This document shows positions 1 to 17,300 of a DNA stretch of 35,147 nt, one piece after another (position 1 is the first letter of the stretch; the number at the start of each line of letters is the position of its first letter). Location of the stretch: NCBI GenBank assembly GCA_029762535.1, contig JARVGK010000006.1:78703-113849 (forward strand), read 5' to 3'. Below the pieces are notes generated by a model. It was given only the letters and a program-made list of their open reading frames with translations, was not told the origin of the DNA and ran no database searches. Source of the DNA: Thermoplasmatota archaeon. Lineage in GTDB: Archaea; Thermoplasmatota; Penumbrarchaeia; Penumbrarchaeales; Penumbrarchaeaceae. A program made the position numbers and the translations under genes.

Positions 1-36
1 ATGAAGCATAATTTTTCATCAGTAAATTGTTGTAGA

Positions 37-83
37 GCACCATTTTCCGCAACAATGAAAATATGACGAGAGGAAAATGGTGC
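37..83. repeat. 12-bp perfect inverted repeat overlapping the tRNA 3' end
   Basis: gcaccattttcc (37-48) is the exact reverse complement of ggaaaatggtgc (72-83). On the tRNA strand the trailer can pair back onto GCACCA-TTTTCC. Confidence 0.7.
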
Positions 84-164
84 GAGGGCTGTGATTTGAA
101 CACAGGAACCACTAAGGACCAGACCCTCAATCTGGCGCCGTTGACCAAGCTGAGCTACCCTCGC
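78..164 (-). tRNA. tRNA-Leu (anticodon GAG), intron-less, CCA encoded
   Basis: Reverse complement is GCGAGGGTAGCTCAGCTTGGTCAACGGCGCCAGATTGAGGGTCTGGTCCTTAGTGGTTCCTGTGTTCAAATCACAGCCCTCGCACCA. Acceptor stem GCGAGGG/CCCTCGC, anticodon stem CCAGA/TCTGG around TT-GAG-GG, long variable arm, T arm CTGTG-TTCAAAT-CACAG, discriminator A plus CCA. Confidence 0.96.
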
Positions 165-550
165 AGATAATTGGCGGTCAACACCGGTCCATAGAGTTTT
201 TGCGGATGGTTCGATCCCCTTTTTCGCTGATCCTATCAGCTTGGTCAACGGGGACCGTGTCGGGGCCGAATGGCGCCGACATCCGGGAAATCCATTCGGA
301 TTTTCCGAAGATTGACCAAGCTGAGCTACCCTCGCAGATAATTGGCGGTCAACACCGGTCCATAGAGTTTTTGCGGATGGTTCGATCCCCTTTTTCGCTG
401 ATCCTATCAGCTTGGTCAACGGGGACCGTGTCGGGGCTGAATGGCGCCGACATCCGGGAAATCCATTCGGATTTTCCGAAGATTGACCAAGCTGAGCTAC
501 CCTCGCAGATAATTGGCGGTCAACACCGGTCCATAGAGTTTTTGCGGATG
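141..550. repeat. 171-bp tandem repeat, about 2.4 copies, each containing the first 24 nt of tRNA-Leu plus its upstream region
   Basis: Units start at 141, 312 and 483 (ttgaccaagctgagctaccctcgc...). The third is truncated at 550. Units 1 and 2 differ only at C267/T438. Confidence 0.95.
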
Positions 551-628: not shown

Positions 629-1696
629 TCATCCACAGGCGATGTCGAGAATCCTTCGGGCGCTCTCCCCGTCCCCGAACGGGTTCTCCCAATCCCTCCT
701 CACGGAGATCATCTCCAGGCTCCTTTGAAGGATCCTGTCAGGATCCGATCCCGCGAGCACGTTGGCCCCAACATCTATGGTCTCTGGCCTCTCGGTGTTC
801 TCCCTCAAGGTCACGCAAGGGACCTTGAGTATGCAGGCCTCCTCCTGTACCCCTCCGGAATCAGTAAGTATCAGAGAGGATCCCTCCTCGAGCTGCAGGA
901 ACTCCATGAAACCGACTGGGTCCACCACCCTTATCCCTCCAGAATCGATACCATGCTGATCCATGAACTTTTTCGCCCTGGGATGAATGGGGTAAAGGAC
1001 GGGCATTCCCAGTTCCTCCCCGACCCTGGAGGCTCCCTGGATGATCCCCGATAACCTCTCCCTTACATCCACGTTCTCGGCCCGGTGCGAGGTCATCAGT
1101 ATGTACTTACCCTTCTCCAGACCGAACCTTTCGAAGGGATCCCCCTGTCTCCTGGATATCTCCAGGTTCTGAAAAACGGAATCGACTATGGTGTTCCCGA
1201 CGATGAATATCTTCTCCTCGCCGATGCCCTCCCTCAACAGGTTCCCCTCGGAGATCACGGTCGGAGCGAAGAGATGATCGGATACGTGATCGGCAACGAT
1301 CCTGTTGATCTCCTCCGGCATGGTCCTGTCGAAACTTCTGAGACCGGCCTCCACATGTCCCACTCTGATGTGCATCTTCGCTGCGGCGATGGCCGCGGCC
1401 ATGACAGTGTTCGTATCTCCCTGGACGAGCACTTCGGAGACATCCTCCCTTTTCAGAACGGCCTCGACGCCCTGGAGGATCCTCGCGGTCTGCTCGCCAT
1501 GTTCTCCGGAACCCACATCCAGGTTATAATCGGGATCTGGCAGCTCAAGCTGTTCGAAGAATTTGCGGTCCATCTCGTAGGAGTAATGCTGCCCCGTATG
1601 CAGCAGTATATGGCCTAATCCTATCTCCTTGCAGCGCCTTATGACCGGGGCCATCTTTATTATCTCGGGCCTGGTGCCCAGAACAATGGCTATCAG
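629..1696 (-). CDS. wecB: UDP-N-acetylglucosamine 2-epimerase (non-hydrolysing), probable CTG start
   Basis: Motifs HTGQHY, VQGDTNT, HVEAGLRS, PEEINR, TDSGGVQEEA, TERPET, NPFGDG. The conserved N-terminal IAIVLGTRPEIIKM lies upstream of the first ATG (1654). An in-frame TGA at 1715-1717 leaves CTG at 1694-1696, which follows SD-like GGAAGTGA. Confidence 0.93.
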   Translation of the reverse strand: MIAIVLGTRPEIIKMAPVIRRCKEIGLGHILLHTGQHYSYEMDRKFFEQLELPDPDYNLDVGSGEHGEQTARILQGVEAVLKREDVSEVLVQGDTNTVMAAAIAAAKMHIRVGHVEAGLRSFDRTMPEEINRIVADHVSDHLFAPTVISEGNLLREGIGEEKIFIVGNTIVDSVFQNLEISRRQGDPFERFGLEKGKYILMTSHRAENVDVRERLSGIIQGASRVGEELGMPVLYPIHPRAKKFMDQHGIDSGGIRVVDPVGFMEFLQLEEGSSLILTDSGGVQEEACILKVPCVTLRENTERPETIDVGANVLAGSDPDRILQRSLEMISVRRDWENPFGDGESARRILDIACG

Positions 1697-1700
1697 CGTC

Positions 1701-2174
1701 TCACTTCCTTCTTCTCAGGACCAGGAATGCAGCCGCCAGGCCGCCGAGCCCCAGGAATATGGCCCCACCGCAGCAGCAGGCGCTGTCCAGCCCCGGACCG
1801 ATATTAACAGTGATCGAGAAGGGACCGGTTCCGGAAACCATCAGGAACAGCTCCTTGGAGGACGTTCCCTCGTTTATGTGCTCGTAGGATTCTCGATCCC
1901 CTTCACTGTCAAGGACGAACGTGAAGAACGGGTCATCCTCCTGGTCATAACCGCCATAGGCCCTTATCGAACCCTCTCCGAGCAGCTCGAACGTGATGGT
2001 GAACTTCATGTATGGATGGACGTCGAGGGAATACCATTCCTCGCTTTCCTCCACTTCCCCCTCCGTCACCCCAACGAAGATCTTCTGGGCGTTCTCCATG
2101 CTGTCGTTGTCAAGTCCCATAGCGGAACCGCAAAGGAGCGTTATAACCAGGACAGATACTGCGAACCTGTTCAA
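1701..2174 (-). CDS. Hypothetical secreted protein with C-terminal Cys-rich membrane anchor
   Basis: TTG start, signal peptide (MNRFAVSVLVITLLCGSAMG), acidic beta-rich body, C-terminus ACCCGG + hydrophobic helix + RRRK. Co-oriented with wecB and 4 nt from it. Confidence 0.8.
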   Translation of the reverse strand: MNRFAVSVLVITLLCGSAMGLDNDSMENAQKIFVGVTEGEVEESEEWYSLDVHPYMKFTITFELLGEGSIRAYGGYDQEDDPFFTFVLDSEGDRESYEHINEGTSSKELFLMVSGTGPFSITVNIGPGLDSACCCGGAIFLGLGGLAAAFLVLRRRK

Positions 2175-2189
2175 ATTCCCACCGCACCT

Positions 2190-2261
2190 TCATCGCCTAA
2201 GGATTACATCCATTTTGCGCTGGGCCTCACTCCATAGATGCAGCCTGTAGCTCGCGTCCAT
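2190..2261 (-). CDS. Putative 23-aa micropeptide MDASYRLHLWSEAQRKMDVILRR (below ORF-track cutoff)
   Basis: ATG at 2259-2261 with TATA-like CTTAAATA at 2284-2291, the same 23-30 nt spacing as leaderless genes elsewhere in the window. RKMDVIL resembles the KRMEIVL motif of a neighbouring peptide. Confidence 0.4.
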   Translation of the reverse strand: MDASYRLHLWSEAQRKMDVILRR

Positions 2262-2308
2262 AATGAACGATTCACAACTGGAATATTTAAGGTGTACGGC
2301 ATAAGCCT

Positions 2309-2488
2309 CTAATCATCATCCGAGCTTTCGAAGGAATCGGTCTCTGTACCGAAATCCCTGTCATCGAAGCTTTTCCTCGCACATGCGGGACATATCCTTG
2401 ATAGCTCCGGAGGCCTCTGCAGTCTGATGTATATATTATCCTCAAAATATTCACCGCATAGTTCGCAGCGTATCTTGAATCCCGACAT
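2309..2488 (-). CDS. 59-aa zinc-finger microprotein (CELC ... CPAC, acidic tail), not in ORF track
   Basis: Hand translation MSGFKIRCELCGEYFEDNIYIRLQRPPELSRICPACARKSFDDRDFGTETDSFESSDDD. Two CxxC pairs. TATA box ATTTATAA at 2511-2518, 23-30 nt upstream of the ATG. Confidence 0.8.
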   Translation of the reverse strand: MSGFKIRCELCGEYFEDNIYIRLQRPPELSRICPACARKSFDDRDFGTETDSFESSDDD

Positions 2489-2520
2489 GGACGGGCTAAA
2501 GGATAAATTATTATAAATAT

Positions 2521-2616
2521 CTAATCAAGGGCCCTGAAAGGATATGACAAGAGGACTATCTCCATCCTCTTCACGTGCTCCCTGTCATATCGAGCGACCT
2601 TATGGGTAACATCCAT
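2521..2616 (-). CDS. Putative 31-aa micropeptide MDVTHKVARYDREHVKRMEIVLLSYPFRALD
   Basis: SD-like AGGGGTCA 4 nt before the ATG. Shares EIV(L/I)LSY with the upstream peptide through mostly synonymous codon differences. Confidence 0.5.
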   Translation of the reverse strand: MDVTHKVARYDREHVKRMEIVLLSYPFRALD

Positions 2617-2631
2617 GTACTGACCCCTTGA

Positions 2632-2697
2632 CTATCTTCGGCCGTTGTAGGATAGTATCACTATCTCCCTGAATGGATCCTCATCGGTCCGCTGCAT
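2632..2697 (-). CDS. Putative 21-aa micropeptide MQRTDEDPFREIVILSYNGRR
   Basis: Consensus TATA box TTTATATA 23-30 nt upstream of the ATG. EIVILSY motif shared with the next peptide. Confidence 0.5.
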   Translation of the reverse strand: MQRTDEDPFREIVILSYNGRR

Positions 2698-2719
2698 AAG
2701 GGCTCAACCTACAAAACCA

Positions 2720-2727
2720 TATATAAA
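2720..2727 (-). promoter_or_regulatory. Archaeal TATA box (TTTATATA) for a leaderless transcript starting near 2697
   Basis: Consensus TATA sequence at the same spacing seen for the cupin, metK, nmd3, J-domain, Lrp and PfkB genes. Confidence 0.7.
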
Positions 2728-2761
2728 GAAAGCAACCTCATTATCAATAGTTGAAAAAGGA

Positions 2762-2929
2762 TCAGGTCAAGAACCTGTAATTGGTAAGGTTATCCCTTAT
2801 CTTCTTCTCAGTTATCATGGTAAGGATCTCGACGGCCTCCTCCCTTGTTCGGCCTGCGGCCTCGGTCTCCAATTCCGGGCAGCGGGCTATGAACGTCCCG
2901 CCCTCATTGACCACCTGTACGTCGAACAT
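2762..2929 (-). CDS. HicB-like antitoxin N-terminal domain protein (55 aa, no DNA-binding domain)
   Basis: MFDVQVVNEGGTFIARCPELETEAAGRTREEAVEIL matches the HicB pattern (F/Y-x-A-x-C-P-E/D-L...G-x-T-x-E-E-A). Start moved from 3016 to 2929 based on the domain boundary and a TTTTTATC box upstream. Confidence 0.7.
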   Translation of the reverse strand: MFDVQVVNEGGTFIARCPELETEAAGRTREEAVEILTMITEKKIRDNLTNYRFLT

Positions 2930-3151
2930 CCATTCATTCAACCGGTAATAGAGGATAAAAAGGTTGTCATCGGATTTCCTTAGATGAAAAACGGGTGTTA
3001 CAAGTATGTAAATCATTGTCGAAAGATGTTAAAATGACCTTTTATCGCCCTGGAATGAGAGGTGATAATCTCATGGAATGCGCAAAGATTCAAAAAGGGG
3101 TCCGATATCCCATCGTTCGATGAAAAGCGAAGGTAAAGGGGTTATGCCGGA

Positions 3152-4336
3152 ATGAACGCGATGTCCTTCATCGAGTTCATCGTCGCGATCTCCGCATTGA
3201 TGCTCATTGCCAGGAAGAGCCTATGGTTGGCACTGACGTTCTCCGCCCTCCTCCTTGGCATCATTTCCCTATCCTTTTCGGACCTCTCGGTCGTGGTAAG
3301 CACAACGCTCTTTGATCCTTCCATCATACTCCTTTCCATATCAGTGGCCCTCATCGCGATGATTGGCGGTTCCATGGAGATGACGGGGCTCATAGATGAG
3401 ATGATGGACAACGCCAAAATTAGCAGAAGACACGCCCTGCTCACCATACCCGCGGTCCTTGGATTGCTTCCCATTCCAGGGGGCGCCCTTCTCTCCGCCC
3501 CAGTTGTGGAAAAGGGCGCTGGCAAAGCCGAACCCGATATTAAGGCCTCCATAAACATATGGTCAAGACATGTGACCGTGCTGTTCTATCCCTTAGGCAC
3601 CCTTCTTGCTGCCTCAAAGATGGCTGGATTGAACGTGTACACGATCATCCTTTATCTCTTACCAGGACTTGTCCTGACGATAGTGTTGATATGGGCGTTC
3701 CTCTTGAGAAAGGTGGAAGGGGGCCGGATCTCAAGCGGCGGGACCATCAAGAAGGCCTTGGCCCCGATCCTTTTGATACTGACGGCACCCTTGGTCCACG
3801 CTGGCCTGATGCACGCCTTTCCGAACGTCATGGAGGAGATATTCCTGCTGATCGGCGTCTCATTGAGCCTATCCCTTGTAATGATATTCAAGAGAAAGGG
3901 GCCCTCTTATCTCCTCCCCGTACTTAAGAAGATGAAAGCGTACAACTTCGCCCTTATCATCATTGGCATGTTCCTTTTCCTCAACGTCTTCAACAGTTCG
4001 AACGCCCCTGGAGCTGTGGCCTACCTTCCTCTTTCAACGCCCTTATTGATCGTCCTTGCAGGAGGTTTGCTCGGTGTCGCTACGGGCAGGGTCAACGTCC
4101 CCATATCCGTCATGCTGCCTATACTGACAGCAAAAGGCATGATCGTCAACGAGATCTCCTTCACAATACTGTTCTTCAGTATATTCATCGGGTTCCTGAT
4201 ATCACCAGTCCATCCATGCGTCAGCGTGTCGCTCGAGTACTTCAGGACCGATTACCCATCGACCCTGAAGCGCACGTTCATACCAGCCACCATCTCGTGG
4301 TCCCTGGCCCTGATAACGGCATATCTCCTGTTGTGA
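3152..4336 (+). CDS. DUF401-family multi-pass membrane protein (putative transporter)
   Basis: About 10-12 hydrophobic helices. Motifs PAVLGLLPIPGGALLSAP, NIWSRH and GFLISPVHPC. Confidence 0.8.
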   Translation: MNAMSFIEFIVAISALMLIARKSLWLALTFSALLLGIISLSFSDLSVVVSTTLFDPSIILLSISVALIAMIGGSMEMTGLIDEMMDNAKISRRHALLTIPAVLGLLPIPGGALLSAPVVEKGAGKAEPDIKASINIWSRHVTVLFYPLGTLLAASKMAGLNVYTIILYLLPGLVLTIVLIWAFLLRKVEGGRISSGGTIKKALAPILLILTAPLVHAGLMHAFPNVMEEIFLLIGVSLSLSLVMIFKRKGPSYLLPVLKKMKAYNFALIIIGMFLFLNVFNSSNAPGAVAYLPLSTPLLIVLAGGLLGVATGRVNVPISVMLPILTAKGMIVNEISFTILFFSIFIGFLISPVHPCVSVSLEYFRTDYPSTLKRTFIPATISWSLALITAYLLL

Positions 4337-4351
4337 TCATGGAGCGCAAGA

Positions 4352-7300
4352 TCACTCTTCGTCGAACTTGCCCTTCTTGGACCCGCCTCTCAAGGCGAAG
4401 CCCACCAGGCCTCCGATGAGCAATGCGGCCGCCACTCCACCGCCCATCATGGCAGCGGAGACGCCCCTGGTCCCGCCGGTCGTCGGGTTGTCCACCAATA
4501 TCCTCTGGTAGAGAGTAACTTTCGCAGTGTAGGTCCTGTTCATCTCTAACTTAACGGGGGCGTTGAGCGGGCCGATCTCGTTTCCGTTCTCGTCGTAGAG
4601 CACCGCATGGGCGGCAGCGATGTTTATGGTGTACTCCCCCTCCTCCGGAATTCCGAAGGTAACAAGGCCCTCATCATCGGTCACGAAACCCCCTATGCCG
4701 ATGACCTCTATCTTCAGGTCCTTCATCGGGGTGTTGTTGTCCTTCTCGACGAACTTCACGGTTATGTTCAGTGGGACCGGTATTGGGATCCTCGGCGTCA
4801 GGTACAGCGGCTGGTATATGCTCGATGCCGAGGGCACGTTCACCAGGGCGGAGCCCGGAGCGTATCCAGAAAGGGACGCTTTGACGTAATAGTCCCCCGG
4901 CATCAGCACCTGGCCGTAGTTCCCATTGGTATCAGCGGTCAATGTATAGGTGAGGACCATCCCGGGCATCTGATAGATCTCGACGGTCGATCCCGCCCCT
5001 GGAGCATAGGTATAGAGCTTGAACACCTTGCCGTGTAGCTTCCCGGGCTTCTGCTGTCCCTCTCCCACCGTTATATCCACCCACATGATCTGGGAGGAGC
5101 TGAGCGGGAAGGTGACCGGAAGGGTCGTCGATGTAGTGCTGGCCCCTCCAGGGTAGAGATAGTATTTGACCTCCAAAACGGAGAGTGAGGGATGGAAACC
5201 GCTTATCTGCCAGTTGGAGAACAGATATATGGGCGAGAAGAAGAAGAGACCGCTCGCAGGGGTCGACTGCGTGTAGGTCAGCGTTCCGCTGTTCGCGCCG
5301 ACGGTGAACCCGTCGACCGGATCCCCGGTCCCATACATGGTAACCTGGCCAGCGATCACGGCGGCCTCCCTATCCTGCTTCAGGAGGAAATCCACATGCC
5401 TCGAGGTGCCTGGAAGCACCGTACCTGACCAGGGTGCTGCGGACACCACGCCCGTGGTCCAGTCGTATGCCATGATCGAATAACCGCCCACTGCCAACGG
5501 TGTGAGGGTGAAGTCCCCCGGTGTAACGATCCTATCGTAGTGTCCAGTGCTGTCAGTGACATCGAACAGCGTCATACTGGAGGTGATATCGAGGATGGGG
5601 CAGGAAGGCACTATGGGCCCACCAATCGCCCCAACATAGACGTAACCCCAGATCCTCGTCCTGTTGTTCGGAACCTCCTGCTGGACGGAGATCCTCACCC
5701 ACATCGCATCAGGAACGGACATGTTGAACATCACCGGAAGGGTGCTCGAGCTTGTGGTAGGTCCTCCGACCATGAGATGGTATTCCACATCCACAACGTA
5801 TAGGCCGGGATGGGATCCGTCTACTGTCCAAGATCCAGGGTCCCACAATGGGGAGAATAGGAAGAACCCGCTCGCAGGGGTCGTCTCGTGCATGGTGGGA
5901 GTGGACGGACCTAAGGCTTCAACGTCGAAACCGGCCACAGGCGCTCCGCTGCCGTGATATACGACCTGTCCGGCGATGAGGAAGGACTCCTTTTGCTCCT
6001 TTATGACGTAATCCACCTGCCTCGACTCCCCGGGGGCTACAGTGCCGGTCCATGGACCCCAGCCCCAGATCCCGGTCGCGTGATCGTAGTTCATCATCGA
6101 ATATCCGCCGGAGGGAAGGGCTATGTGTGTGTATGTCCCCGGGGATACATGCTCATGATAGAAGCCGGACCCATCCGTCGTGGAGAATACCGTCATCGAG
6201 GTGGTGATGTCCAGGATCGGGCAGCCGGATATCGCCGTCCCGAAGGCCGCGCTCGTTACGTAGCCCCAAATGCTGGTCCTGTCCTCCCCTTCCTCCTTCT
6301 CCATGAACAGTTTCACTATGTTCACCTCGGAGGAGGTTAGGTTCAGTGCCCCCATCACCACCGGACCGGGATGATGGTCGAATCCGACCATGTGATAGCC
6401 CGGATGGACCGAGTTTATCCAGTACAAACCCCAAGCAGGGATCCCCACCCAGATATGGACGTTGGATGAGGGTCCTGTGTTCACGCTGTCCGAGAAGTAA
6501 CCATATGAATGGACGAGGTTGATCGTGGAGTCGTTCAATTCCACTCCCGTTCCGTTCTCCCATACGGACGCTATGACAACGGCGAACTCGCGCTCAGAGC
6601 CTTTCTGCAAATAGAAGTCCTGCCTCTGTATCGTTCCGGTGGGCACGTTGACCATCGTGGATTGGGGGAAGAAGCCTGCCGCGGTCGCACCGACGATATG
6701 ATCCATATCTCCAGGGAAATCCTCTATTACGTAGAGACCGGCGATGCCCATAGTGTTCGTTCCCACGACGTGAGGGACGTCGCTGAAAACCTGTGCGGTG
6801 GGGAGAGGTGTGCCATCCCCGTAAACGAATCCCCAGAGCACGGTCTGGTCCTCTTGGGACGGCTTGAGTTCGAGGTCCACGTATGTGATCTCTCCCCAGT
6901 TCACGGTGCCGGAACCGCTAGCGGGATAGTATCCGGAGGCTGCGCCAAGGACCGTGTAGGTGCCGGCATCGGGACCGGCGAAGAAGTAGAAACCGTGGGC
7001 GTCAGTGATCGTTGTGAGAGTGGCGATCCCGTTGGTCGCCATTATGGTCGCATTCCCTATCGGTACGCCCGTCACACCATCGGTCACGTTCCCGGTCAGG
7101 CCGCTGTTGTGCATGCCGGTGTATTTCATTATGAAATCATGGTAAACCACCTCTCCAGCATGGACGGAAAGGGTGGGAGAGTGTGAGGGCACATGTCCGT
7201 GGGCGAAGCACCAGAGATGATGGTCCCCAGGCGCGACTATCACGAAATATTCCCCTATCAACGGATCATCGGTCGCAAACACGTCCACGATACCGGGCAT

Positions 7301-14361: not shown

Positions 14362-17300
14362 TCAGGTCCTTCTCCTTATAATGACGGCTCCCATCAGGGC
14401 CGGTACCATCAGCAGAAGGAGGAGGAGAAGGGCGTATCCGCTTCCCACCCTGGCGGGATCTCCGATAGCGAATTGCTCCTCAATTTCGGCAGCAGGGGGA
14501 TCGATCCCGTCTTTGTGTTCTTCGAGGATAGGTTCGGTCAATGGGGTCATTACGGGAAGCGTCTCCTCATCATCGGTCCTTGATCCCTCGAGGGACTCTC
14601 CGAATAAGACCACGTTGTCCATGTATATGCCCTTGAACAGACCCGGATCCTCGAAATGCTGACCGTCGATGTTCGTCACTACCCTGAACCTGAGTATGAC
14701 GGTGTTCCCTATGAACCCGTCGAGGTTCGTTATCAGCCTGGCCAGGGAATGTGATGCGACCCAGTAGTTCCCTAAAGGCAGTCCGGTGAAGGATTTGCCG
14801 TCCCCGGGTACGCCGTCCGAGGCGTCGTTCTCCGTCCCCGAGACGCCCCAGGAGGTTCTGACACCGAGGCTCAGAGGGACCCAGCTGACACCGTTGTCCT
14901 TGCTGATCTCGACCCTGAAGCCGTCGGGAGGTCTGCCGGAGGCCGTCTGGATGTTGAACTTGAACTCGGCGTAAAGGTGTGCGGTCCTCGCGTTAGTGAG
15001 GTCGATGGGCCTCGTATAAAGGGAGTTGTCCACACCGTCCTTGAGATCGCCTCCCAGCGATGGATCCCCGCAGTACCAGGCCATTGTAGGTGCATTGTTC
15101 TTGTCGAGGGTGGAGACGTGGTTCCAGTTGTCCAATGAATCGTCCTTTCCCGTATTGTCAACGTCCGTGGATGTCTTCAACATCACATCGTCGATTATCC
15201 ACCCGTAGCCCGATCCCCCGTAGTTGTAGACGTACAGGAACTTTATCCTTATGTAATGGCCGACGAAATCGTTCAGATTTACCGAGATGAACTCCCAACC
15301 CATCGTCCCGCCCGCGCTCTTTCCGTTCCAACACCATCTCATGGGAACCCCGAAATCGTCCAGGTTAGTGACCCAGGAGCTTGTTAGTGTGTTCCCCGTA
15401 TAGGGCTGATCGGGCTGGATGTACAAGTATCTGTAGGAACCTTCAGGGAAGGCGTCGTCATCGGCTATGCCTATCTGGATCACTCCGCCGTTCGCTCCGA
15501 CCTTGAGGTTGTACTTGTGATAGAATGTCAGCGTCGCGTTGTCGACGTTCCTGAGGTCCAATGGTTTTGTCAGCAGCCACTTGTTCGTGTTCACGACCGA
15601 ACCGTCGGTCCAGGGATTGTTGGGATCGATCTCCGGGGCGCCTCCGCCGCCGCCGGATCCGCCTCCCCCCCCTCCTGAAGAGGTGTATTTGCTCAGGAAC
15701 AGCCTCTCGGGAGGAATGATCTGCTTGGGCTGGCTTGAGGAGGACCATGAAAGTTCGGCGACCGCACCGCCCCCGTTCTCGTAGTATTCCATCACGATCT
15801 TGTAGAGAACGTTCCCCTGAAGGGATATGGATCCCGATACCTCGTTGGGGCTCTTATCCCTCCAGTCATTTATTATCCTCACGTCGTTGACATAAAGCCT
15901 CACGCCGTCGTCCGTTCTCGTGTAGAAAGTGTAGGTCTCTGCGTAAAGAGGAAGGACATATCCAGTCCATCTGACCGCGACCCGATCGTTCTGGACTCCG
16001 CCCACGGAACCGGTCCCCCAGTTGTAGTTGACGTTGGGCTCGACCCTGACGAGCTCGAAGTTCTGGAACCCTGCGGAACCGCTCCAGGTGTAATACTCCG
16101 CCCTGAGACCGTTGCGGTCCCTCAAGGCGCTCTCGTACAGGTCCGTAACGTCGTTATCGGTCAGCCTGTAGTTGAATATCCTGAAATCGTCGAGGGATCC
16201 GTCGAGCCTGTAGTTCCAGTTGGAGCTGCCATCATGATAAGAGGTCCAGAGCCCTCCGGAGGCACCCATGAATATTCCACTCGTGTCGGATGCTATGTAT
16301 CCTCCGTAGTTCTGTGAATCCACAGGGACCGCGTCGATATACAGGGTCTGTGCTAAACCGTTCCCGTCGAACATGAACGTTATCAGGTGCCAGTTCGAGG
16401 TGTCCGAATAAGGCATCGATAACTCGCTGTTGGCCGAGAATGAGGACACCCATCGAGCGTAAAGCCTGTTGTTGTACAGATAAATGGTGAGGCCGTTGGT
16501 GGTGCCTCCCTGCCGATATATCACCTGCCTGTTCACGGTGTCGTCGGCCTTGATCCAGAAGGATATGCTCCTGGTCTGCATGTTCAGGTTGTCCAGTTGA
16601 AGGCTCGATGGGATCTTGATCTCGTTGTTCGCGTTCATGTCTATTGCGCCGGAGATCACTCCTGTGGTCACCCATTGATCGCTCCTGAGGACGTTCCCGT
16701 TATGACCAAAACCTGAGGCGTCGGCGGCCACGGTCGCTCCGAAGGCCTCGTCCAGCTTGTAGTATAGGACTTCTCCCGCCCGGGTATCGGCCCTTGTCGC
16801 CTGCTGGGCGAGGTTCTGGATCTCGACGAATATGTCATCGTATATTGTCTGCAGTTCGTTGGCTGTTGGAGCATAGTAATATTTACCCCTCCCTATGCTG
16901 TTGTATGAGGATTTGTGGGCTATCTGCCAGAGATCGTATTCGGTGGTGTGAGGAGACCAGCTCTGGCTCGGCGGCGTGGACCCTCCGTTGACGTATGTAG
17001 TGTCCCTGGGGCTGATGCCAAGTCCTATCGTGAATACATAGACCGGTGCATTGATCAACCCTGTTCGCATGTCATGGACGCTGTTTAGATTCACATAGGA
17101 CCCGCCTGAAGTGCTGGTCCTCCTGTAGATGTCGCGTCCAGCAACGCCCCACTCGTCGAGATACTGTTTTTGAGGATCCCCCCATCTCAGGCCGGACATG
17201 TCCCTTCGACCCCATGTCGTATCCGCATGGGACAAGCCCGCATCGGATCCGGGGGCATATCTCTCCGATCCTGTCTCCCGACCATTAGTTCCCCAGTCAT

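Follow-up and report, generated by a model that had tools for sequence, protein, structure and literature searches.

The ends of IS200/IS605 elements, PATEs and REP/RAYT systems carry two strand-specific hairpins, and their insertion site is chosen by base pairing to the DNA of the element. Larger elements enter tRNA genes: the Islander catalogue, which requires an integrase and a length of at least 2 kb, lists 5′-fragment islands as 159 of 3,919 (PMC4383910). The nearest described small repeats, as far as the available text of their description goes, are the tRNA-linked repeats (TLRs) of Escherichia coli (PMC8144298). Here we describe what is apparently an undescribed family of tiny, gene-less DNA cassettes in tRNA genes of sediment archaea (Thermoplasmatota), which flank, unannotated, more than half of the tRNA genes of one archaeon. 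No description of this cassette family was found in the literature we searched, which covered few subscription journals.

The window, by which we mean the whole stretch of 35,147 nucleotides analyzed here, comes from a 2.96-Mb genome (53% GC, 93% complete) whose family-level relatives are Thermoplasmatota MAGs; the stretch is present in mud and sediment metagenome runs. Near its start lies an intact tRNA-Leu(GAG) gene, the target gene (78–164, minus strand, ARAGORN), and upstream of it 2.4 copies of a 171-nt unit (141–550), each made of tRNA nucleotides 1–24, a 44-nt leader and a 103-nt insert, the cassette. Comparison of the repeats sets unit 1 at 141–311, with its tRNA nucleotides 1–24 (141–164) now belonging to the intact gene, and unit 2 at 312–482, which is 99% identical and carries the single change C267/T438. 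The leader (165–208, minus strand), which starts with a CATCCGC-type box common to cassette-bearing loci, has identical copies at 336–379 and 507–550; a variable linker occupies 209–235. A displaced copy of tRNA nucleotides 1–24 lies at 312–335 (minus strand), and a distal copy of the same nucleotides with its leader at 483–550 (minus strand) is flanked by a decayed linker-like stretch. By analogy with an empty and a filled site in sister species, the distal copy is presumed to be the original site. The repeat and the junctions in relatives place the insertion point between tRNA nucleotides 24 and 25 (window 141/140; Sprinzl 21/22), in the D-loop. Judged from sequence, this layout of a tRNA and its displaced fragment is the integration signature described for genomic islands (PMC4383910).

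Unitig depth in the best DNA run (X1) was about 27 at the junction and about 42 in the 68-nt repeat, against about 12 in the unique flanks. Because depth relative to the unique flanks is thus about twofold at the junction and about threefold in the 68-nt repeat, and because of an independent strain, we consider the repeat real and not an assembly artefact. On the 3′ side of the gene, positions 1–77 (minus strand) hold the start of an array of related cassettes, with units of about 213 nt that end in the tRNA 3′ end; 37–48 are complementary to the tRNA-Leu 3′ end and trailer (72–83). This array (window 1–77 plus the 503-nt genome contig C3) is broken by an assembly gap left of the window, its depth suggests at least three copies, and the loops of hairpin B, described below, vary among them. 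The gene adjoining the locus encodes UDP-GlcNAc 2-epimerase. At 629–1654, a wecB-containing block lies upstream of tRNA-Leu(GAG) where most relatives have rpoD directly upstream, and the locus has therefore been rearranged. Farther along, a 2,530-aa ORF occupies 14362–21954 on the minus strand. No mobile-element enzyme or recombinase was found among the ten nearest ORFs scanned or inside the 171-nt unit.

A first-pass annotation of the window had described each repeat junction as a three-way element, and the pairings on which it relied are all present: the perfect stems 236–248/312–324 and 407–419/483–495, hairpins at 258–281 (loop GAAT) and 284–307 (loop ATTC), the 8-nt complement 266–273/292–299, the G287·T304 pair, the C267>T438 change, a further hairpin at 226–240 and the T-loop-like GGTTCGATCCC at 208–218. 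The fold is real, but the junction is four-way rather than three-way, because there is a fourth arm of 3 bp (249–257) as well as two basal pairs (282–283 with 310–311). On the plus strand it comprises a guide of 16 nt, the complement of the empty tRNA site (236–251; second copy 407–422); the mini-arm CGG-GGA-CCG (249–257; second copy 420–428); hairpin B, with a 10-bp stem whose sequence is free to vary while pairing is kept (258–281; second copy 429–452); and hairpin A (282–311; second copy 453–482), in which the two basal pairs and an AA bulge (308–309) underlie a stem, 284–307, of the GAAAAT...ATTTTC type with a G·T pair. The guide and the D-loop end of the displaced tRNA copy close the junction. 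On both strands, the fold was more stable than all 200 shuffled controls, whether computed as RNA (z = −7.35 for the plus strand, −6.78 for the minus strand) or as DNA (−8.28 and −7.19).

On the folded strand, 23 of 26 units have G-N-A as the loop of the mini-arm, which the other strand never shows; by analogy, this pattern suits DNA mini-hairpins. GNA triloops are known in stable DNA mini-hairpins, and their special stability is described, in the available text of the source, for a C-G closing pair (PMC13037366); the 5′ units close with G-C. The T-loop mimicry that the first-pass annotation had seen in 208–218 is not conserved; 212–219 is instead one arm of an alternative stem with 250–257, with one G·T on the tRNA strand, and in some units this stem could explain part of the G-N-A conservation.

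The same layout occurs in related genomes upstream of tRNA-Leu(GAG), Leu(CAG) and Ser(TGA). All 18 loci that we parsed have an insert of 55–60 nt, consisting of a 9-bp hairpin A, a 10-bp hairpin B, three tRNA-continuing bases, a 3-nt loop and the guide. In an 18-row MAFFT alignment, 87.9% of cells were paired and 23 of 35 pairs had changed on both sides, levels reached by none of 500 shuffles, and slid controls paired at 22–48%; the rows are related, so these pairing statistics are not a probability. Two-sided changes affected nine of the ten pairs of hairpin B, and almost no unpaired base is conserved among the aligned units. The fold is real and is conserved by compensatory changes in two Thermoplasmatota families. 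A covariance model matched all 13 other genomes of the family and all 4 of the second family (at least 80% complete); it had no match among 123 further genomes sampled from the phylum. Every one of the 18 good genomes in the two families has cassettes, and this ubiquity could reflect a host function. The first-pass annotation recognized no family for the element, and Rfam, at gathering and E-value thresholds, likewise gave no credible match to the fold, in a scan that also missed the tRNA itself. Viral contigs, phages and plasmids that we searched held no cassette copy, and the four matches of our pattern in bacterial genomes, along with most of those in metagenomes, lay away from tRNAs and formed no junction. 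In the same D arm there are at least two other types of core, each equipped with a guide of its own (after nucleotide 15 and after nucleotide 23; loci L008, L015, L017, L034, L037, L059–L062, L077, L085–L087 and L090), and their antisense part often reaches, with gaps, the tRNA 5′ end or leader.

The complementary loops of hairpins A and B had suggested an RNA switch on the plus strand, in which kissing of the loops unmasks a 24-nt anti-tRNA-Leu segment and the hairpin at 226–240 competes with the fold. The loops are indeed complementary in the host genome, and the plus strand folds slightly better than the minus strand. Yet complementarity is confined to one of 18 loci, that of the host genome, and a 4-nt loop match would be expected at least once in 18 loci with p ~0.07. 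A close strain (run X3), with 8 differences in 198 nt, breaks the match: it has TTAC for ATTC, keeps GAAT and replaces G287·T304 with A-T. The competing hairpin is not conserved in relatives, whose linkers differ from one another. The switch idea fails because the kissing loops are not conserved, and we hold it to be very improbable indeed. The masked anti-tRNA RNA fared no better, as behind other tRNAs it is the tRNA-sense strand on which this core folds.

What the first-pass annotation took for an inverted copy of the D arm is one, although it is 16 nt long (236–251) and matches the intact tRNA across the insertion point. This guide complements positions 138–153 of the window (tRNA nucleotides 12–27) and spans the exact insertion point, with 13 nt on one side and 3 nt on the other. 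Across loci, the guide is tailored to each target tRNA. Guides match their own D-loops at Ser(TGA), Ser(GCT), Ser(CGA) and Leu(TAA) loci, and contain target-specific segments (GGCC for Ser(TGA) and one Leu(CAG), GGCCCA at L096, GGTACGG for Ser(GCT)); at L040, AAG in the tRNA past the junction is matched by AAG in the cassette and CTT in the guide. When D-loop targets are distinct, the own match is clearly the best (at L096, for example, 11 against at most 4); scores are tied among near-identical Leu targets, and a few guides have decayed. In one 3′ subfamily, the antisense stretch matches the tRNA 3′ end and trailer, not the breakpoint. We considered a C/D-box guide in view of the CTGA that stands after the guide and rejected it, CTGA being merely the complement of the tRNA and missing in relatives.

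Copies of tRNA fragments are widespread in the host genome, lying within 600 nt of 25 of its 45 tRNA genes (on the 5′ side at 9, on the 3′ side at 22) against a background of 0.4% at random sites. Some orthologous sites are empty: three genomes of one genus carry tRNA-Leu(GAG) without a cassette, and in another genus one species has an empty site that is filled in its sister species. At the filled site, the distal leader matches the empty site of the sister and the tRNA-proximal leader differs. This pair agrees with an element that supplies its leader and 5′ end itself, with the direction of change unpolarized and the repeat perhaps collapsed in assembly. Contigs of four runs, which drop rare forms, contained neither circle joints nor empty alleles. 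Arrays that mix different unit types are frequent (L037, L040 and L172), and at the tRNA-Arg and tRNA-Pro loci of the host the units include a TATA-like box common to the loci.

Several other places in the host genome hold related modules. Upstream of tRNA-Thr GGT, at about 49,465–49,750 of contig C36, a whole dead tRNA copy is broken by two double-hairpin cores, located in its anticodon stem and its T loop. The unit has neither a target duplication nor a guide, which suggests that cores can also insert alone, or that units recombine. On C29 (about 1,000–4,370; tRNA-Ile2/Met CAT), cassettes behind the tRNA bracket cargo that appears to consist of a heavy-metal P-type ATPase-like gene, a His-rich small gene and a hicAB-like pair. 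Modules of the hairpin A type also occur off tRNAs, on C25 (47,700–48,000 and 48,600–48,850), C61 (1–340), the end of C4, and C31. Three cores on C25, one with a possible guide, interrupt a long ORF, from which protein genes may be targets too.

Observations on the strand support the plus strand as the favored folded strand at the tRNA-Leu unit, as its wobble pairs had led the first-pass annotation to propose. Mismatches in hairpins A and B of relatives were A·C on the tRNA strand 17 times and G·T twice, or about 13 versus 2 by hand count after shared cases were merged. A model built from 5′ D-loop units alone also retrieved T-loop units behind tRNA-Asn, Ser, Thr, Glu and Arg in relatives, with a weak match behind tRNA-Arg(GCG) in the host genome, and these units fold on the tRNA-sense strand. 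Because a model of 5′ units thus finds the core on the opposite strand, the folded strand follows the cassette and not transcription. In the host genome, 12 copies carry the G·T mark of hairpin A on the sense strand, and at 8 tRNA genes it is on the antisense strand. The mark follows core orientation: behind tRNAs, cores that run B then A have the G·T pair on the tRNA strand, and cores that run A then B have it on the opposite strand. Read along the folded strand, 5′ and T-loop units share one order: guide, short loop, about 3 nt of left target, hairpin B, hairpin A and right target. The left flanks on this strand are CCG, CTT, GGG, GGGT and GGGAA. From copy to copy the T-loop breakpoint moves by a few bases and is therefore no fixed sequence. 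The word TTGACG recurs in hairpin B loops and linkers of the host's 3′ cassettes, oriented with the core, and may be a protein-binding site.

These findings bear on the idea that the unit is a pre-tRNA leader or trailer maintained by the host, whose guide pairs with the D or T arm to tune folding, processing or turnover, with the fragment as a decoy. The unit does lie between the probable promoter and the tRNA, the guide:tRNA duplex (−29.3 kcal/mol) is stronger than that with the 13-nt own copy (−21.1 kcal/mol), and the alternative stem, which would display the guide, contains a G·T pair on the tRNA strand at two loci (L001 and L009) and has undergone a compensatory change at a third (L016). 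The family's presence in all good genomes of two families adds to this, as do the E. coli tRNA-linked repeats, which are transcribed according to the available text of PMC8144298. Against it, the core stems of the 5′ units are selected on the strand opposite the pre-tRNA (the 17 versus 2 above), the same core is found in both orientations behind one tRNA, and orthologous tRNA genes of close relatives have no cassette; nor is there a bulge-helix-bulge at the junction. We regard a host-maintained leader as quite unlikely. An archaeal tRNA intron or split tRNA was rejected separately, since a simple pattern found no bulge-helix-bulge with its cut at the junction on the tRNA strand.

Y1 transposase (TnpA) was found in 0 of 24 family genomes, with positive controls, in MAGs that can miss repeats. 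The first-pass annotation had offered a REP/MITE-like single-stranded DNA (ssDNA) element at the D arm as an alternative, and an ssDNA element at the D arm is close to our best reading; strict REP or MITE identity was rejected, given the 0 of 24 for Y1 transposase and the lack of fixed terminal inverted repeats. Reverse transcriptase (RT) was not detected in the host genome (93% complete), and a retron or other non-autonomous retroelement was rejected on this ground and on the patchiness of RT in relatives. Within the family, RT genes occur in 6 of 23 relatives and IS110 in 9 of 23. RT, IS110 and serine recombinase do not track the cassettes, since their distribution is patchy or extends to families that lack cassettes. 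The sole IS110 copy of the host (an intact 412-aa transposase, L056:1276–2514) lies away from tRNAs, and no cassette-like ends were seen at it. A 286-aa serine recombinase with resolvase and recombinase domains lies with a small upstream gene behind tRNA-Cys (L234:1117–2152, contig C58); it occupies this place in seven or more genomes of the family, occurs widely in the phylum and appears sedentary. As the enzyme it was rejected, being missing from cassette-rich genomes and common in cassette-free families. Tyrosine recombinases are widespread. One of 266 aa, scoring below the cut-offs of integron integrase and XerA models, adjoins a different array on C25 (about 72,000–101,700), where co-oriented genes are separated by attC-like sites (TAAC...GTTA) with branched tips; this recombinase is at most a possible cassette enzyme.

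A rival reading is that an RNA copy of the folded strand moves or acts, its guide working like the exon-binding site of a group II intron or a bridge-RNA loop, with a reverse transcriptase or IS110-type enzyme inserting the unit in trans. G·U pairs fit RNA, and indeed G·T pairs suit RNA as well as DNA, a point against our own reading; a guide-defined strand would also allow both orientations. RT and IS110 genes do occur in relatives, and one IS110 element is known to have a small non-coding passenger (PMC12288879). In the host itself, however, no RT was found, and its lone IS110 copy is far from tRNAs and without cassette-like ends. Moreover, there is one contiguous guide instead of two loops for two strands, and almost no unpaired base is conserved. 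One RNA run (X15) gave no contig, a weak test as contigs are strandless, and no plus-strand promoter was evident, in a scan for sigma-70 that, leaving archaeal promoters aside, is weak too. Taken together, we find an RNA intermediate fairly unlikely.

A dedicated enzyme might instead be dispensable, if fold-back synthesis and template switching wrote the antisense copy and re-copied the tRNA end, and the hairpin core spread by slippage and repair. Some units (L008 and L034) contain sense, antisense and sense copies reaching the leader, one at L015 has just two bases in place of the core, templated rewriting would explain the tailoring of guides, and no enzyme tracks the family. Repair noise would, however, have difficulty producing the geometry that is constant over two families and many targets (a 10-bp hairpin B, a 3-bp arm, 55–60 nt), the constant base of hairpin A (2 bp plus bulge) and the one-strand mismatch bias. 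Such an origin is, in our judgment, unlikely.

We favor, as somewhat the more probable account, a non-autonomous, non-coding mini-element: the 171-nt unit would insert in tRNA genes, rebuild them and be recognized as folded ssDNA. We infer movement of the unit from empty and filled sites and from its many targets. The element would integrate into the tRNA D-loop, bringing a replacement leader and tRNA 5′ end, and because the unit brings both, the gene would stay intact while its old 5′ end is pushed outward. The plus strand of the window, most likely as ssDNA, would fold into a four-way junction whose arms are the guide:target-right helix, a 3-bp guide:target-left arm, hairpin B and hairpin A. 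Exchanging its 13 + 3 pairs in the element's own junction for 16 contiguous pairs with the intact gene, the guide would then bring the hairpin A/target boundary into line with the empty site and so choose that site. A single strand transfer at that boundary, presumably catalyzed by a protein encoded elsewhere and fixed by subsequent replication, would insert or remove the unit, as for integron cassettes in the available account of their exchange (PMC3458562). Identical neighbors, like the two here, could be added or removed by slippage between the 68-nt direct repeats. We propose a sharper version tentatively, as doubtful: a dumbbell core of about 60 nt and a DNA guide in cis may form a Holliday-like ssDNA four-way junction, at which an enzyme transfers a strand at a site set by the guide alone. 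If true, this would be DNA-guided, re-targetable integration without a fixed target sequence, its 9–16-nt guide rewritten for each tRNA site.

If the guide truly selects the site, an enzyme that inserts DNA at guide-programmed sequences would represent a new recombination mechanism and a possible tool. Otherwise, the cassettes still offer a defined structure, strand and breakpoint for the origin of tRNA-linked repeats, a question since 1978 according to the available text of PMC8144298. The D-loop, 5′-restoring form mirrors the usual 3′ integration, with unusually clear geometry.

Set beside known systems, the cassettes share with tyrosine-integrase islands (Islander, PMC4383910) an intact tRNA with a direct-oriented displaced fragment on the correct side, a restored gene and tandem arrays. 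They differ in measuring about 110–200 bp, a hundredth of island size, in lacking an integrase, in carrying an antisense copy of their own site and in a T-loop crossover that shifts by several bases between copies. Island subsites are the anticodon loop, the T loop and the T/acceptor junction, whereas the tRNA-Leu unit uses the D-loop and its 3′ relatives the T loop. Integron attC sites (PMC5027507; archaeal integrons, bioRxiv 10.1101/2022.02.06.479319) resemble the cassettes in favoring structure over sequence, using one strand, and having bulges and arrays. The cassettes, in contrast, have no conserved RYYYAAC/GTTRRRY box (in the alignment and at Ser, Thr, Glu and Arg targets), a four-way junction in place of one hairpin and tRNA genes in place of attI, and are usually geneless inside.

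Programmable target pairing, and small non-coding modules that move and occur in tandem, link the cassettes to IS110 bridge RNA and its passengers such as ssr9 (PMC11208160, PMC12288879); the cassette guide, however, is contiguous and on one strand, the D-loop junctions have no common core dinucleotide, and nothing ties the cassettes to the host's IS110 copy. The E. coli TLR/rtT repeats, within the available text of PMC8144298, are likewise tandem non-coding units of similar size beside tRNAs, each ending in a copy of a tRNA end; they copy 3′ ends only, whereas the cassettes copy 5′ and 3′ ends, and neither a junction-spanning antisense guide nor a four-way core is described in that text. With IS200/IS605 elements, PATEs and REP/RAYT, the cassettes have in common strand-specific hairpins, no true target duplication by the core and site choice by base pairing. 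Unlike IS200/IS605, the family has no Y1 transposase (0 of 24) and no fixed 4–5-nt target 5′ of the site, and its guide, of 9–16 nt, mainly pairs 3′ of the cut and is target-specific. Unlike in a MITE, the closing stem derives from the target and differs from one tRNA to another, and there are no family-wide terminal inverted repeats or short target duplications. We class the cassettes as a variant of tRNA-integrating elements, with the layout of tRNA-integrating islands, and the complementary copy of its own site in each of them hints at a re-targetable way of inserting DNA.
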